This document shows, piece after piece, positions 30,001 to 36,000 of a stretch of DNA of 64,000 bases. Numbering within the stretch: the stretch's first letter is position 1; every line of letters starts with the position of its first letter. A program made the position numbers. Source of the stretch: Candidatus Aenigmatarchaeota archaeon (GTDB lineage Archaea > Aenigmatarchaeota > Aenigmatarchaeia > QMZP01 > QMZT01); NCBI GenBank assembly GCA_963726265.1, contig CAVSBQ010000002.1, positions 448,001 through 512,000 of the forward strand, read 5' to 3'.

Positions 30001-33000
30001 TTCTTGTCAAGAGTGTATAAATTGTAGTCATGTGTTCCCATTATTACAAGCTTCTTCCAGAAAACAGGATTGTAAAAGGGTATCAGTCCGCCGAGTTTTG
30101 TTCTCCATATTTCCTTGCTTGTTTCTGGGTTGATTGCATAAATGTTTTGGTCCATAGAACCGAAGTAAAGGATGCCGTCATTTATTTTCGGAGAAGAAGC
30201 GACAGAGCCTCCGAAAGTTGCCTCCCAGCCGCGAATGAACGTCTTCGTCTTCCTGACCTCAAAGTCGGCCATCTCTATGAGAAAGTCGTCAAACTTCAAG
30301 TCGGTCATAGTAAAGATTTGAAAATAAGATTAAAAATGTGTTGTGCCGGGCATAGCCCATTTTCTGTCATCTCACGAGGTTTGATCCTCGAATGAGGCGA
30401 TAGCATTTTTCTAAGTCGTGTCCAAGCAGACCGGCATGCGAAACGCATGCCTTTCGCTTTTTCACTTTCATCCGTGCGGCGCGAACTATTTCACCCTTGC
30501 GCTCCTTCCACGCTTTTCCTTGCGGAAGCATCGCTCCGAAGCGAAGGTCATTTTCTGCGTTTGCGCGCGTTCTCTCGAACGCCGTCTTGCGACAGCACAC
30601 ACGCCATTTATTGGCTGGATGTATGGAACTTGCCTCCCTGCTTGCGCAAGGCGAGCTATCCACCCGGCTCAACAAGATTTCTTGCGTTTTGGGGTTTAAA
30701 AAGATTAAAATCGCCTTTCGCCGGCCCTCACAACAGCTGCGTGAGCAGGATGCCGGCTATTATGAGAACGATGCCCGCGATCTTCTGCAGCGACGCTTTC
30801 GTATCGAAATCCTCTTTCAGCAGATGCGGGAAATAACGCGTAAGCAAAAAAGCGGAAATGAATATGAATATGACCATCATGTTTCCGGCCGCCTCAACGA
30901 GCGTGACCGGCCCGAGGCTTATGGCAATATAGTTGAATATGAACGCGAGAACTGATGTTATTGCATCCAGAAAGATTAGCATTTTGCCTGTCCGATCGAG
31001 CTTTTTCATGCAAGTTTTCGCATTCTTCCTCACGTCGCGCAGTAAGAGCAAAGATGATATTATCGCTATATTAAGCAGCCATAACAGAATGGAGGCTCCC
31101 CAGTATTCCGTGCCGGACAGAACGAATTTCATTATGACATAGGAAACAGCAATCAAAAAACTTGATGCCGCCACCAGCCAGAAAATCCGTTCGACCTTGA
31201 GCAGCTTTGACATGCTCTTTGATGATATTACCAGCCCGCCCAAGACAATGACCACGAATCCTACGTAGTCAAAAAAACCAAGGACTTCTCCTATGAACAA
31301 AAACGAGATGAAAAGCACGAAAACGGGAATGAACTGGTAAAGAGGCAGGACTCTCGATGCTTCGCCTGCCTGCAAGGCCCTGTAAAAAAGTATTGTGCCC
31401 GCGGTGGAAAACAGCCCGGCCACGAATATCCAGCCTGCAAACTGCGGGCCAGGCATGGAAAATCCCATGAAAAGCGCGATAAAGCATATCGGTATTATGG
31501 ACGTTGCTCTCACAAAAATGGGCAGGACGATAGGCTTGTTCACTTTTTTGTCCACCAGGAACTTGTCCAGCATGTCCGTCGCTGTGTAAGCCAGCGCCGC
31601 CAGAACCACGAAATAAATCCAGTCCATCTATATAATTTCTGATAATTCGTTTAAAACCAGAATGAGGCATCCAAGGCATTTTGATCAGGGCAGCTAAATT
31701 ACAACCCTGAATCACGGGGGCTGATCAGCACACCCTTCTGACCAAGCCTTGGACTCGATTGCTAACTAATTAATAATTTGTCTGGGAGTTTTTTAAACAT
31801 TTCCGTTTGTGAAAATAGATTTTTGGAAATATACAAATCAAAGTATTCTTTTTTGTCTTTATTTTTGTCAATTAGAGCTTCCGCTGATAGCGGTTCAAAT
31901 GAAAAAAATAGAAATTAGGCGAGTTGTCCTTTTGACAAGGATCTGTCAGGGTATTGGTTAACGTGGGCTGAATGCCTCGCCGAAGCTTGGCACTTACACC
32001 CCGTTTCCATCAACCTCGTCGTATACGAGACCTTCCAAGGCGCGCCGATACTCGCGTATCAGTTTGCCCAACGGTTACCTATTTTCAGGAGAGGCTTCAG
32101 GCTTAGATGCTTTCAGCCCTTATCCTCAGTGACGTAGCTACCCGGCAGTGCAGGCACAACCGGTACACCAGAGGTCACAACGCACTGTTCCTTTCGTACT
32201 ATGTGCATTCTCCCCTCAGGTAACCAACACCTTCAGCAGATATAGACCATACTGGCTCGCACCGTATTTAACCCAGCTAGCGTGGCTCTTTAATGAGTGA
32301 ACACCTCCACCCTTGGACGCTGCTGCACGTCCAGGAAGAGCCGAGCCGACGGCGGAGAAGCAACGAGCGCGGTCGATTTGACCTCTCACTTCCCGATATT
32401 TTCATCACCGCGGCTTTCGAAAAAGCCGCGGCTCAATAGCCAACAGGTTATAACCTGCTGCTGTCCTGACAAAAAATTTGATACGCACTAAGGCGTACCA
32501 TCTTCTTGTCCTGACTTCGAGAACGAGAAATGAGTTATGGACTCTCACGCGCCACGACTCCATTACCCCCAAGGTAACTTTTCTGACAGAGCTGGCTCCC
32601 AGCTAATGGAGACACAGCGGATCGCTAGGCCACGCTTTCGCGTTAGGATTCCTCGCCTTGCGGAATCCTATCAGGCCGGCTTTTGCCCTTGCACTCTAAA
32701 TTCCGATTTCTGACCGGAATGAGCCGACCTTAGGGCGCCTCTGATCCTTTATCAGAGGCGTACCGCCCCAGCCAAACTGCCCATCAATTGCTGTCCCCCT
32801 AAAGGTAAGCAATATGTTAACGGTGGGTTGGTGTTACATTGACGCCTTCCCCAAACCCGAAGACTTGGGTGCGATGCTCCCAACTACACTATGCGACCAT
32901 CAACATACCGCAACAACAGACTGCAGTAAAGTTCTATGGGGTCTTCTCGTCCCGCTGAAGGACTCCGGGTTATTCGCCGGACAACTAAGTTCGCTAGGTG

Positions 33001-36000
33001 TCAGGTCAAGACAGTGGGGATGTCGTTAAGCCATTCATGCAGGTCGACAATTAATCGACAAGGGATTACGCTACCTTAAGACGGTCAGAGTTACCGCCGC
33101 CGTTTACCGGGGCTTGGCTGGTTTTGGCCAGTTTAACACACCGGCACTGGGCAGGCATCAGGAGCTATACAAAGCGTTTCCACCTAGCAGCCCCCTACGT
33201 TTTTGTTAAACAGTCGCAACCCCCTTGTTACTGAGACCTACTCGTTCTGTCTGAGACAGAGGAGTAGGCACCCCTTATACCGAAGGTACAGGGCCAATTT
33301 GCCGAATTCCTTGACCTGACTTCTCCTAATACACCTTCGCCTTTTCAGCGAGGGGCACCAGTGACGGTTCTCGGTACGGTCATGAAAGATCCATTCAGAT
33401 TCCCTTTTCACCGATTCCAGGAGTCAACCGAACGGACATACGCCCGCTATTTCTGGTTTCGCCTGCTTCTCACCATTACGGTACTCCACAGGTTTCGCCA
33501 GTTAATCACCGAAGTGATCGGCATATCCCAAAATGTCAGGAATCAGACTTGTGTCGCCACACGTACTTCCATGGTGCAGGAATATTAACCTGCTTCCCTT
33601 TCGATAAGTTCCAGTTGGGGCTTGTCTTAGGACCGACTAACCCTCAGATGACGACCATTGCTGAGGAACCCTTGCCCTTTAGGTGGTGGAGTGTCTCACT
33701 CCACTATTGTTGCTACTATCAGCAAGATCCTTGTTCCTGTAAGGTCCATTCCCTCTTACGAAGAAACTTCTGCCCTACCAGGACACCTCTCTACCATAAT
33801 CCTTTCGGAATCTAAGATATCGGTACCAAACTTAGTCCCGTCCATTTTCAAGGCCCTCAACCTAGATAGGTGAGCTATTACGCTTTCTTTGAAGGGTGGC
33901 TGCTTCTAAGCCGACCTCCCTATTGTCTATGGGTGAAGACGCTTTTCATCACTTAGCTTGGATTTAGGGACCTTAATCTTAGGCTGGGTTCTTGCCCTTT
34001 CGGATACTGAGCTTACCCCAGTACCCCCACTCCGGCCTTCTACGGAGGATGGTAGATTCCGAGTTTGACAGTGCAACTGAACCTTTCGGTTCTTGGTTGC
34101 CCAATCAGTATCTATACCCTGCCATCTTCCTCCGGCCAGGCTATGCTGAGGCATATTTCGAGAGGAACCAGCTATTGCTGAACGCGATTAGCATTTCACT
34201 CCTAGCCCCAGGTCACGTGAGCGATTTGAATCTCAGCATCTCTATCGGGCCTCCATCTAGCTTTCGCCAGACTTCACCCTGCCAAGGGCTAGATCGTCCA
34301 GCTTCAGGTCTTACCCCTGTGACTTTAGGCTCTTTCAAACCTGACCGCCTGACGGCACAAAGCCGATGCGCGGTTCTTGCTTTCGCTGCGGGTACTTGAA
34401 TTACCCTCGCCACAGAAATAAACTCCTTGCCGCGTGTTTCCGCACGGGCGACAAAACTCCTGCAAGCAGGAGCCTTGCCTACCTATAATTACATGGTTTC
34501 AGGCTCTTTTCATCTCCGGTTAGAGATACTTTTCATTTTTCCGTCACCGTACTAGTGCGCTATCGGACTCGGGGTGTATTTAGGATTGGGAGTTACTGGC
34601 TCCCGTATTCCCAATGGATTTTCAACCAATGGTACTCTGGATACCCGCTATCAACCTTCTTCCTTGCTCATACGGGGCTATCACCCTCTACGGCAGATCT
34701 TTCCAGATCACTTTTGATTGAGAAGTTAGGCTGAGCACGGGTCCGAACCCCACATCTCTCCTGGCTTTCACCAAGAGATTCGGTTTGTCCTTTTCCCTTT
34801 TCAATCGCCTCTACTAGGGGAATCACGATTGTTTTCTTTTCCGGCCCTTACTAAGATGTTTCAATTTAGGGCGTCACCGATGACCCGAAGGTCAACGACA
34901 TATGTCAGGAAGTCCCATTAGGAGATCCCGGGTTCAAAGGCTGCTTGCGCCTACCCCGGGCATATCGCAGCTTGCCACGTCCTTCTTCGGCCCCCGAACC
35001 AAACCATCCACCACGTAACGTAGCAGATCCTTTTTGTCAGGACAACTCGCCTATGTTTCATCATCAAGGAACTCAAATGGTGTTCACTTTTTCATAGAAA
35101 GCGAAAGACGCAAGCTCGCGCATGCGTCTGTCTGCCTCCTCAAGTGACTGTCTGAAGAGTCATCATTCCTCTCCAATCCACCCGCCAAAATTTATTGGCG
35201 AGCTTCATATACCGACATGCAGAATTGCATCGCCGCATACCGGTTTCTTTGTAATTTGGTTAACATGAACTAGCTACCAATAGCTTGTTCAGAATAAGAC
35301 AGACATACTCGCGTACGCCACCCTCTGACTGCATGACCTCTTTCCCTGTCACGGATCAAAGGCCAAGTCTCTGAACAGCTTTGGATAGCCATTGTTAGGA
35401 AACGTATTGCATCACTGCAAGTTTCCGTAAGCGTGAGCAACTATTATATTGTCCCGGGACATTTAAATACATTTCTGGGCCAGTTTTCAGTTGCCGTTTC
35501 TTGCTTTCGTTTTCCGCTAATTCCGCTTCAGCGGAATCTTAAGCCTTTTTTTAAAAGGCTTTTATGGACCGAGTGGGAATTCCACGCCCGCCCAAGCCGA
35601 CCGTTGCGGGTTCGTGTTGGGCGAGGTTTTGAACCCACGGCCTCTCGCTTGCAAAGCGAGCGATCTGTGGCGATTGAAGCAGACCTCGTCTGCTTCACCT
35701 TAATTACCGCTGATCTATCGGCCCATGCGTTTCGAAGGATGCAGAATCTCATTCTGCATCGGTTTGTTAGATGTGATTTCGCAGGAGATTGTATTGAGAA
35801 AGCGAGATATATATAAGGAGGTGATCCAGCCGCACGTTCCCGTACGGCTACCTTGTTTATCGGATAGTGAGATGATAATTTGCACTATTTTGGCAATTAG
35901 AGCTGCACATATATAGCTGTCATAAGAAACCTTTTGGGTTTCCTCAATTTGCCCATCTCACCGTCTTACGACTTAGCCCTCCTTGCAAAGCTCTGGTTCG

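Follow-up and report, generated by a model that had tools for sequence, protein, structure and literature searches.

Introns in the 16S and 23S rRNA genes of an Aenigmatarchaeota archaeon as probable one-K-turn box C/D guide RNAs

The 16S and 23S rRNA genes in the window analysed here (a stretch of 64,000 nt, along which all positions are counted, from a genome labelled G000, that of a tiny uncultured archaeon) each hold an intron with bulge-helix-bulge (BHB) ends, 110 nt long at 16S 1499/1500 and 159 nt long at 23S 2477/2478. Judging from comparative sequence data, it is probable that both are protein-spliced introns that double as box C/D guide RNAs. BHB ends, guide, box D, a co-varying hairpin, box C, pairing with a target and the genes of the enzymes could all be read from the sequence. 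The preliminary description had taken the introns for box C/D guides, and this is supported with the amendment that the form is a one-K-turn (halfmer) guide and not a full four-box sRNA. Archaeal rRNA introns are treated as selfish or inert; these two probably serve a function at the decoding site and the catalytic centre, the ribosome's two functional centres.

Position, ends and presumed excision of the introns

The coordinates previously given for both introns proved exact. Cutting out the two inserts restores the conserved junctions A1499/A1500 and U2477/A2478 (E. coli numbering by alignment to K-12 rrsB/rrlB; Table 1). The identical spliced sequence results from three registers in 16S and two in 23S, and only the register of Table 1 gives each intron a 4-bp central helix with two 3-nt bulges, where the cuts restore the host RNA. 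The central helix is GUCG/CGAU in 16S (pairs G-U, U-A, C-G and G-C) and GUCC/GGUC in 23S, including one U.U pair. The 16S helix had been called invariant; it pairs in all introns, but its sequence varies (CGAU or CGAC). The flanking intron helix (h') has 13 pairs, with 95% of cells paired and six pairs changed on both sides, while the exon helix (h) beside the bulge has 2 bp in 23S and no direct pair in 16S, a relaxed form. The 16S intron splits the 1492R primer site, which we take to lie at this position, hence full-length 16S surveys would under-count the host's order.

Table 1. Features of the two rRNA introns, their host genes and their predicted targets (window coordinates)
Feature	Position	Strand	Basis
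16S rRNA gene (host)	35816..37373	-	Rfam RF01959, 1381 bits
110-nt BHB intron between 16S A1499 and A1500	35857..35966	-	register and helix test; E. coli numbering
Exon half, 16S BHB central helix (G1494-G1497)	35969..35972	-	pairs with intron 35859-35862
Intron half, 16S BHB central helix	35859..35862	-	helix test; CG-A columns invariant in alignment A1
16S-intron guide, positions 3-10 upstream of box D	35950..35957	-	best rRNA site in scan; covariation at 1400
16S-intron box D variant (UUGA)	35944..35947	-	GA invariant in A1
16S-intron variable hairpin, canonical stem of K-turn	35925..35943	-	6/6 pairs changed on both sides; 92% of cells paired
16S-intron box C variant (AUGACAG), after 3-nt bulge start	35917..35923	-	UGA invariant in A1; K-turn geometry 32/35
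Extra pairing element, complementary to 16S 1390-1396	35903..35909	-	conservation; -7.8 kcal/mol
16S intron-closing stem, 3' strand; inner half masks guide positions 6-12	35863..35875	-	covariation; co-folding
Putative target strand, 16S U1400-C1407 (C1402 = 36053)	36048..36055	-	E. coli numbering
23S rRNA gene (host)	31934..35035	-	Rfam RF02540, 2499 bits
159-nt BHB intron between 23S U2477 and A2478, helix 89 loop	32378..32536	-	register test; E. coli numbering
23S-intron guide, positions 2-9	32438..32445	-	best-supported target 23S 2598-2605, position 5 on C2601
23S-intron box D variant (UUGA)	32433..32436	-	intron comparison
23S-intron GC-rich hairpin, boxes D to C	32407..32432	-	register test; module scan
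23S-intron box C variant (AUGAAAA)	32399..32405	-	intron comparison; module scan
Putative target strand, 23S A2598-A2605 (C2601 = 32254, adjoining A2602)	32250..32257	-	E. coli numbering

RNA contigs of relatives had been reported to skip the 159 nt in four of four runs. The skip is found in three of the four runs compared here, and the accompanying worry about intron-less relatives was justified, as such a relative gives an identical joint. The contigs derive from relatives possibly without the intron (best run: 0.23 of words), and since splicing and intron-less relatives give the same joint these joints do not count as support for splicing. No 110-nt joint for 16S was seen among the RNA matches listed, and no RNA contig spanned the 16S-23S spacer. 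The inserts, of 110 and 159 nt, do not qualify as group I introns, as Rfam gives no hit to that class even with E allowed to rise to 10; the Rfam search returned no meaningful family and no snoRNA family for either, and both are too short to hold a LAGLIDADG ORF.

The genome encodes a splicing endonuclease (PF01974) and a ligase (PF01139), both above cut-off. Along its entire length the endonuclease matches 4FZ2 best (E 6e-105), the broad-specificity epsilon-type enzyme of ARMAN-2. Fibrillarin, Nop5 and L7Ae are all present, as listed before, while RsmI was looked for in this genome and not found.

Guide modules and their predicted targets

In each intron the order is guide, box D, hairpin and box C, with a single K-turn. 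The K-turn geometry noted earlier (tandem G.A pairs, a 3-nt bulge and a stem) holds in 32 of 35 introns and the hairpin co-varies; the covariation score of the structure is 0.72, against 0.25 when shuffled and at most 0.15 when slid. The columns of alignment A1 that precede the guide vary like a base-paired stem, and in the 16S closing stem the outer pairs co-vary and the inner pairs are nearly fixed. The boxes are variants of the consensus RUGAUGA/CUGA quoted in PMC4644070. A1 has no second conserved box pair that would make up the two K-turns (C/D and C'/D') of a normal sRNA, and a terminal C/D motif across the circle junction was rejected as not conserved there. Both introns have box D with a 5' guide that puts N+5 on a Watson-Crick pair; set against the at least nine continuous Watson-Crick pairs of PMC6009581, both fall short, with eight pairs including one G.U in 16S and eight including two G.U in 23S.

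The 16S guide pairs with 1400-1407 and places position 5 on C1402. As a match within one genome this is not above chance, since the duplex alone scores 7.5 and 24% of shuffled guides reach that value, and we discarded the single-genome target ranking as evidence. The earlier assignment to C1402 is nonetheless favoured by covariation at 1400 and by this being the best rRNA site in the scan. Guide position 3 changes along with base 1400, and the two match in 40 of the 42 different introns, with 26 A:U and 7 G:C pairs among 35 introns and 6 A:U and 1 G:C in 7 new metagenome introns; on the tree this represents one target change among 31 guide-bearing tips, with L061 and L080 as exceptions. Guide position 1 is free and the spacing from guide to box D is fixed. 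Positions 4-7 were fixed by the search pattern, so their invariance is not evidence. The guide:target duplex reaches -12.7 kcal/mol against -4.6 for the masking stem, and co-folding opens the stem. An extra element forms at least five Watson-Crick pairs to 16S 1389-1398 in 24 of 35 introns; its support is conservation, as the energy ranking in G000 alone left 1390-1396 outside the top eight sites.

The C1402 reading is supported by the compensatory change at 1400, the fixed box D spacing, the co-varying hairpin, the tRNA modules described below and the measured 2'-O-methylation of archaeal C1402. The latter is Cm1376 in Pyrococcus abyssi (PMC7005279), and in Nanoarchaeum equitans both Cm1402 and Am1408 have been measured, the former without a guide being found (PMC5389701). 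Sister introns at the 1499 site bear other guides: those aimed at A1408 (16 true of 17 pattern matches), where covariation was found at 1410 (L076), and nine aimed at C1535.

The target of the 23S guide had been left open, and C2601 is now the best-supported fit. The pairing is intact in every one of the 12 genomes whose site could be read, and a compensatory change is seen at 2600, where the guide has U for G in the two genomes with A for C2600 (G334 and G335; the G334 row for 2601 is an alignment artefact due to an intron at 2598, and its pairing was read from the other comparisons). A further guide at this site, aimed at U2479, co-varies at 2484 (G319 versus G337/G338). In G000 the top single-genome site is not C2601, and the matching position (2875) had no match in the target tables of PMC4644070.

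The same module is shared by the tRNA-Trp, tRNA-Arg and tRNA-Lys introns of G000. By the N+5 rule it points at C34 in tRNA-Trp, in agreement with the preliminary description, at U34 in tRNA-Arg(UCU) (kept in 9/9 parsed family loci) and at C32 in tRNA-Lys(UUU) (3/3 parsed loci). The tRNA-Arg guide spans the spliced junction, and this module likely acts in trans. A loose genome scan gave 45 D-hairpin-C modules in non-coding DNA with target scores no better than shuffles, and the analysis went on with the intron-borne ones alone. In the spacer between 16S and 23S, a stretch resembling the module (~35090-35156) was rejected as not conserved (0/17 other spacers, one partial look-alike).

Distribution, proposed mechanism and alternative readings

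The intron-bearing family falls within Aenigmatarchaeota. The 16S intron occurs there in more genomes than first described, in 11 of 14 holding the site, G000 included, instead of 8 of 11. For 23S, the two congeners with the same guide (G018, G020) are joined by G004, other inserts are found in G007, G010, G011 and G012 plus a cut-off one in G016 instead of in three genomes, and five rather than four genomes are intron-less (G008, G014, G015, G017, G022). In the host's order the intron junction occurs in 30 of 91 genomes and the intact junction in 6 of 91. The 16S-site introns span 59-283 nt, and 795 nt with an ORF; in G336 a group-I-like insert lies one base from the site. Some alleles lack the guide and others the whole intron, and a search of five intron-less genomes for a free-standing copy found none (model R1 including the intron stem; 150 candidates scored per genome), which suggests that the guide is dispensable or replaced there; a loose pattern search of intron-less genomes gave six matches. 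In the metagenome pattern scan 112 of 119 loci were without 16S context. Among the genome matches at the 16S site, 10 stayed unparsed (including L111, read by eye) and two were mis-parsed (L125, L130). Eleven too-short loci were dropped from the tree, where tips L119 and L201 are misplaced, and L057, titled Hadarchaeota, may be a misbinned contig.

We propose that the epsilon-type endonuclease would cut the precursor and RtcB would join the exons and close the intron. L7Ae would bind the single D/C kink-turn and recruit Nop5-fibrillarin, with the plain closing stem in place of the terminal C/D motif of a normal sRNA. With help from the extra element, the target strand would invade the inner half of this stem, and 2'-O-methylation of C1402 and C2601 would follow. 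The 16S intron would most likely act on the precursor, where the BHB helix takes 1494-1497 from their mature partner 1404-1407 and so frees the target near the guide; alternatively, the excised circle may act in trans.

The covariation in four guides at two sites (1400, 2600, 1410 and 2484) counts for the guide reading; on the other side, each is a single phylogenetic event. Chance, meaning words that look like boxes and a short match that happens to fall in a conserved stem, deserves scarcely any weight: the duplex is short, the boxes are degenerate, the 45 scan modules score like shuffles and no Rfam snoRNA family matches, but the module is conserved in 35 + 7 different introns, where hairpin and guide co-vary, and this refutes it. 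That the short introns are decayed endonuclease introns, whose D/C motif served expression or stability of a circular mRNA, seems very improbable. Seven of 60 parsed 16S-site introns do exceed 400 nt, the two tested ORFs are LAGLIDADG_3, the module of the G003 allele (L008 = L081) directly precedes a 251-aa ORF of this type and L074 retains part of the guide; yet such relics leave unexplained the compensatory changes against rRNA, the ORF-less retention across several families and the tRNA-intron modules. A homing origin may hold true and still be compatible with a guide role.

It is somewhat less improbable, though still doubtful, that the intron is a folding chaperone without methylation, which keeps hold of 1400-1407 (and 2598-2605) during formation of the BHB helix, the K-turn merely recruiting L7Ae or C/D proteins. 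The strand to which the guide pairs is the very one that the BHB helix pushes aside, free-standing sRNAs of Pyrobaculum calidifontis and Thermoproteus tenax pair at the C1402-equivalent as a starred entry (PMC4644070 file 1), and sR25 is among the guides with a conserved N+5 mismatch (PMC6009581). Against this, position 5 forms a Watson-Crick pair in the present introns, and the 23S target, ~120 nt away, is not in a strand that its intron displaces. The module also points at tRNA positions 32 and 34 and at A1408, all of them known to be ribose-methylated. Of the alternatives we give most room, while considering it unlikely, to a 23S guide acting on 23S C411 or 16S C1412, with C2601 incidental. 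Site 411 pairs in five of eight genomes, as well as 2601 does (G000, G018, G020, G334, G335), and 1412 pairs with 6 bp in some, but position 4 breaks the former pairing in G324, G353 and G319 and the latter in G334/G335, while in G000 the latter fails at position 7, leaving 2601 as the sole one of these sites that holds in all 12 genomes.

Building on the guide reading, we tentatively suggest a modular, intron-based modification system in Aenigmatarchaeota, where rRNA and tRNA BHB introns may be natural halfmer guides. Cassettes might be swapped between alleles (C1402, A1408 and C1535 at 16S 1499; C2601, U2479 and C2501 at 23S 2477) and spread by homing endonucleases that would in this way pay rent to their host, and action on the precursor could couple decoding-site methylation to splicing as a maturation checkpoint.

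Comparison with known systems

No rRNA-intron guide was found in print in the literature search; PMC7994747, PMC9670817, PMC7229835, PMC4496867, PMC6125680 and PMC5389701 are compared here for the parts considered. The introns would parallel the intron-hosted snoRNAs of eukaryotes, and hint where guides for orphan methylations, such as Cm1402 of N. equitans, may be sought. A close likeness is found in Euryarchaeota, whose pre-tRNA-Trp intron holds a box C/D guide (Haloferax volcanii; Pyrococcus sR50; PMC7994747). There, too, a BHB intron directs 2'-O-methylation of the RNA that hosts it by the N+5 rule, as is predicted here. Unlike it, our introns have rRNA as host, C1402 and C2601 as predicted targets, one conserved D/C motif and a guide half-masked by the intron stem.

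In design they resemble the engineered halfmer guides MMG4, MMG5 and BMG1 (PMC9670817, PMC7229835), with the guide 5' of box D, one stem-loop-closed K-turn and a plain stem for the second motif, but they are natural, conserved and intron-borne. The engineered forms methylate 8-11-bp substrates specifically with L7Ae present, although an 8-bp substrate was unmodified in one assay set (PMC7229835), and activity of the design has so far been shown in the test tube alone. The rRNA introns are natural candidates for such guides, whose existence in archaea is left open in PMC9670817, and as short RNAs they are testable at once with available recombinant proteins.

With the 16S/23S BHB introns of Thermoproteales and others (PMC4496867) they share BHB ends, insertion at conserved sites, split primer sites and single sites where some forms code for LAGLIDADG proteins and others are short hairpins, but 1499 is absent from the loci named in the part considered, and the words sRNA, snoRNA, guide and methylation are absent from the paper as a whole. 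The group I (IB4) introns of DPANN at SSU/1498 (PMC6125680) have a neighbouring insertion site and related hosts, whereas those at 1499 have BHB ends and lack the length that a group I core needs. Finally, N. equitans sR13 guides A1408 and the anti-Shine-Dalgarno end (PMC5389701), like the sister introns aimed at A1408 and C1535; sR13 itself is a free-standing sRNA with four boxes and is directed to A1534, while the G000 intron instead carries the predicted C1402 guide.

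Intron ends and build of the 16S intron

The window holds a single archaeal rRNA operon, and alignment with E. coli K-12 places the introns of the preliminary description at A1499/A1500 of 16S and U2477/A2478 of 23S, where excision restores the conserved junctions. Among registers with identical spliced sequence, only these form a helix of 4 bp with a bulge of 3 nt on either side. The tRNA-Ala(UGC) in the 16S-23S spacer has two hairpin inserts, in the D-loop and T-loop regions, and was detected neither by ARAGORN nor by Rfam at the gathering score. A further spacer stretch (about 35090-35156, minus strand), D-hairpin-C-like and with an 8-bp match at about 23S 1774, was rejected because relatives do not conserve it. 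Within 23S, near-universal bases of the peptidyl-transferase centre (window 32345-32570, minus strand) deviate from E. coli at 2448, 2452, 2453, 2499, 2500, 2503 and 2504, deviations mostly common to the whole order.

Features of the rRNA operon (window positions) and tRNA genes with guide modules (positions on contig C2 of the genome under study)
Feature	Position	Strand	Module and predicted target
16S rRNA	35816-37373	-	
16S intron	35857-35966	-	guide-D-hairpin-C, C1402
tRNA-Ala(UGC)	35565-35724	-	
23S rRNA	31934-35035	-	
23S intron	32378-32536	-	guide-D-hairpin-C, C2601
tRNA-Arg(UCU), ARAGORN call Glu	C2 ~81900-82120		guide-D-hairpin-C, U34
tRNA-Trp	C2 ~731123-731267		guide-D-hairpin-C, C34
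tRNA-Lys(UUU)	C2 ~840870-841014		guide-D-hairpin-C, C32

Read 5' to 3', the 16S intron consists of a stem strand, the guide, a box D variant and a hairpin, followed by a 3-nt bulge with a box C variant and a conserved element resembling GUGUGC, then by hairpins that vary and the closing stem strand. K-turn geometry is found in 32 of the 35 introns with a C1402 guide, and introns with a single guide have a D/C hairpin of between 10 and about 50 nt. These parts covary: 22 aligned introns show two-sided changes in all six hairpin pairs tested and in 6 of 13 stem pairs, and the inner stem pairs overlapping the guide are almost invariant. No second box pair is conserved among the aligned 16S introns, hence the RNA has one K-turn. 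Six alleles carry two guides (L059, L064, L080, L108, L122 and L129), with two K-turns back to back on a common central stem and D1 paired with C2, C1 with D2, a layout differing from that of the standard sRNA.

Predicted targets of the guides

As previously claimed, C1402 is the best rRNA site for the 16S guide, which pairs with 1400-1407 and has position 5, counted upstream of box D, on C1402. Since 24% of shuffled guides score as high, a single genome proves nothing. Across the 35 introns, guide position 3 faces base 1400 as A:U in 26 and G:C in 7, with two exceptions, and seven new metagenome introns gave six A:U, one G:C and no exception; positions 4-7 were preset by the search pattern, and their constancy is not counted as evidence. 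On a tree of 16S exons built without column 1400, this base changes once among 31 guide-bearing tips, so the covariation amounts to one event. In 24 of 35 introns the element 3' of box C forms at least five Watson-Crick pairs with bases 1389-1398, which lengthens the short guide duplex. The computed energy of the target duplex is -12.7 kcal/mol versus -4.6 kcal/mol for the masking stem, which opens on co-folding. We regard C1402 as the very probable target.

The same module is found in three tRNA introns, each directed at its own tRNA, and the C34 site of tRNA-Trp described before was recovered. All 9 family loci of tRNA-Arg(UCU) that were parsed keep it, with the guide straddling the spliced junction, and so do all 3 parsed loci of tRNA-Lys(UUU), where the element after box C matches the tRNA immediately 5' of the target, parallel to the 16S intron. 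Ribose methylation of the anticodon loop usually falls on positions 32 and 34, and by landing there these modules independently support the N+5 reading.

The preliminary description gave no target for the 23S guide, and the pairing now suggests C2601 as the likely one. The 23S site was fetched from 34 more genomes or contigs of the order, selected among the matches listed, and the same guide, with box D, hairpin and box C, was found in 13 genomes. In all 12 genomes with the target site in hand, guide positions 2-8 pair with 2598-2604, position 5 lying on C2601, which adjoins A2602. Variants at positions 7 and 8 alternate between wobble and Watson-Crick pairs, and two genomes (G334, G335) have a compensatory change, with U at position 4 and A at base 2600. 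At the rival site, 23S 411, pairing is lost in three of eight genomes and kept in five, so 411 may be a second target. The tables seen of PMC4644070 have no entry at the alignment position matching 2601 and give nearby 2606 as a conserved target. Guides in other alleles at 2477 are directed either at C2501 or at U2479, and for U2479 there is a compensatory change at base 2484.

Distribution of the intron at 16S 1499

The 16S intron is common in the family as stated before, although the earlier count of 8 in 11 was too low, 11 of 14 genomes with the site carrying it. Of 91 genomes of the order, a BHB-type 3' junction occurs in 30 and an intact one in 6, G295 being counted in both; its own operon is intron-bearing, and its five intact junctions lie on other contigs (C31, C57, C65, C78 and C88), probably pieces of foreign 16S that were binned with it. 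A junction scan with one genome per species gave 75 loci, titled Aenigmatarchaeota (30), 'archaeon' (26), other archaeal phyla (5) or bacterial (14), the last dismissed as chance or other inserts. Pooled with the fetched regions they yielded 60 distinct parsed introns; 35 have the C1402 guide, seven exceed 400 nt, and several are short hairpin introns without a guide. Among 151 genomes of the phylum, 19 were matched by a covariance model built on the guide intron; 18 of these belong to the order and one lies outside it, and the matches inspected are in the 16S intron. A model that includes the intron stem, applied to 150 candidates per genome, found no free-standing copy in five intron-less genomes. 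Intron-less and guide-less alleles both occur, and the introns with their putative guides are real and kept across an order.

Several individual loci should be mentioned. L057, titled Hadarchaeota, has a C1402 guide intron, by either transfer or misbinning, and its 16S shares 86-89% identity with the available members of the C1400 group. L125 has tandem introns at 1499, of which the short hairpin intron precedes the guide intron and would need to be removed before it. At ten of the 60 introns (L068, L076, L079, L090, L093, L098, L101, L109, L113 and L118) bases 1498-1499 at the exon end read CC, UC or CA instead of UA, so that splicing would give a 16S without the universal base U1498, A1499 or both; an A1408 + C1535 guide pair is present in nine of the ten. 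Relatives (L132-L171) have further BHB-type inserts at about 1363, 1397 and 1492 of 16S and about 2431-2433, 2449, 2533, 2563, 2583 and 2598 of 23S, several big enough to hold homing endonucleases.

Possible mechanism and relation to known guides

The genome encodes one splicing endonuclease, matching PDB 4FZ2 along its entire length, and RtcB, which together would cut out and circularize the intron. The 159-nt skip reported for all four RNA runs was seen in three, and as intron-less relatives would yield an identical joint it is no RNA-level proof. RNA contigs from runs X1 and X2 join window 37374-37384 to 35794-35814, linking the post-16S and pre-16S regions, as expected for the circular pre-16S intermediates of relatives. 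Fibrillarin, L7Ae and Nop5 are all encoded, as noted earlier, and may load onto the single K-turn, with the intron-closing stem replacing the terminal motif. One family allele has the module immediately before a 251-aa LAGLIDADG ORF, hence guides can move with homing introns.

We slightly favour action of the 16S guide on the precursor, because the BHB helix occupies 1494-1497, in mature helix 44 the partner of 1404-1407, and because the outer stem may remain closed while the inner half opens. Engineered one-K-turn RNAs were active in vitro with L7Ae on 8-11-bp substrates in the assays seen of PMC9670817, and an 8-bp substrate failed in a separate assay set (PMC7229835, in part). No RsmI match was found in this genome, which is 88% complete. 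Sections of PMC7005279 and PMC5389701 report 2'-O-methylation of C1402 in P. abyssi and N. equitans, the latter with no guide found there. Sister introns at 1499 hold alternative cassettes, one directed at C1535 and one at A1408, for which L076 shows a separate compensatory change. A1408 is a measured methylation site in N. equitans in the same sections of PMC5389701. A role of the intron guide as chaperone only, without methylation, seems unlikely to us, and is kept alive by the Thermoproteales sRNAs that pair at the C1402 site with a mismatch at N+5 (parts of PMC6009581 and PMC4644070).

A literature search limited to papers open without subscription found no report of a C/D guide within an rRNA intron. 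In the portions covered, the review PMC7994747 names only tRNA introns as guide-bearing, PMC4496867 and PMC6125680 describe rRNA introns without guides, and term searches of PMC12918454 and PMC12558985 gave nothing relevant. Judged by sequence, the rRNA introns most likely hold natural halfmer box C/D guides, which differ in build from the canonical four-box sRNA. Their known counterpart is the guide in the tRNA-Trp intron, like which we propose that they function.
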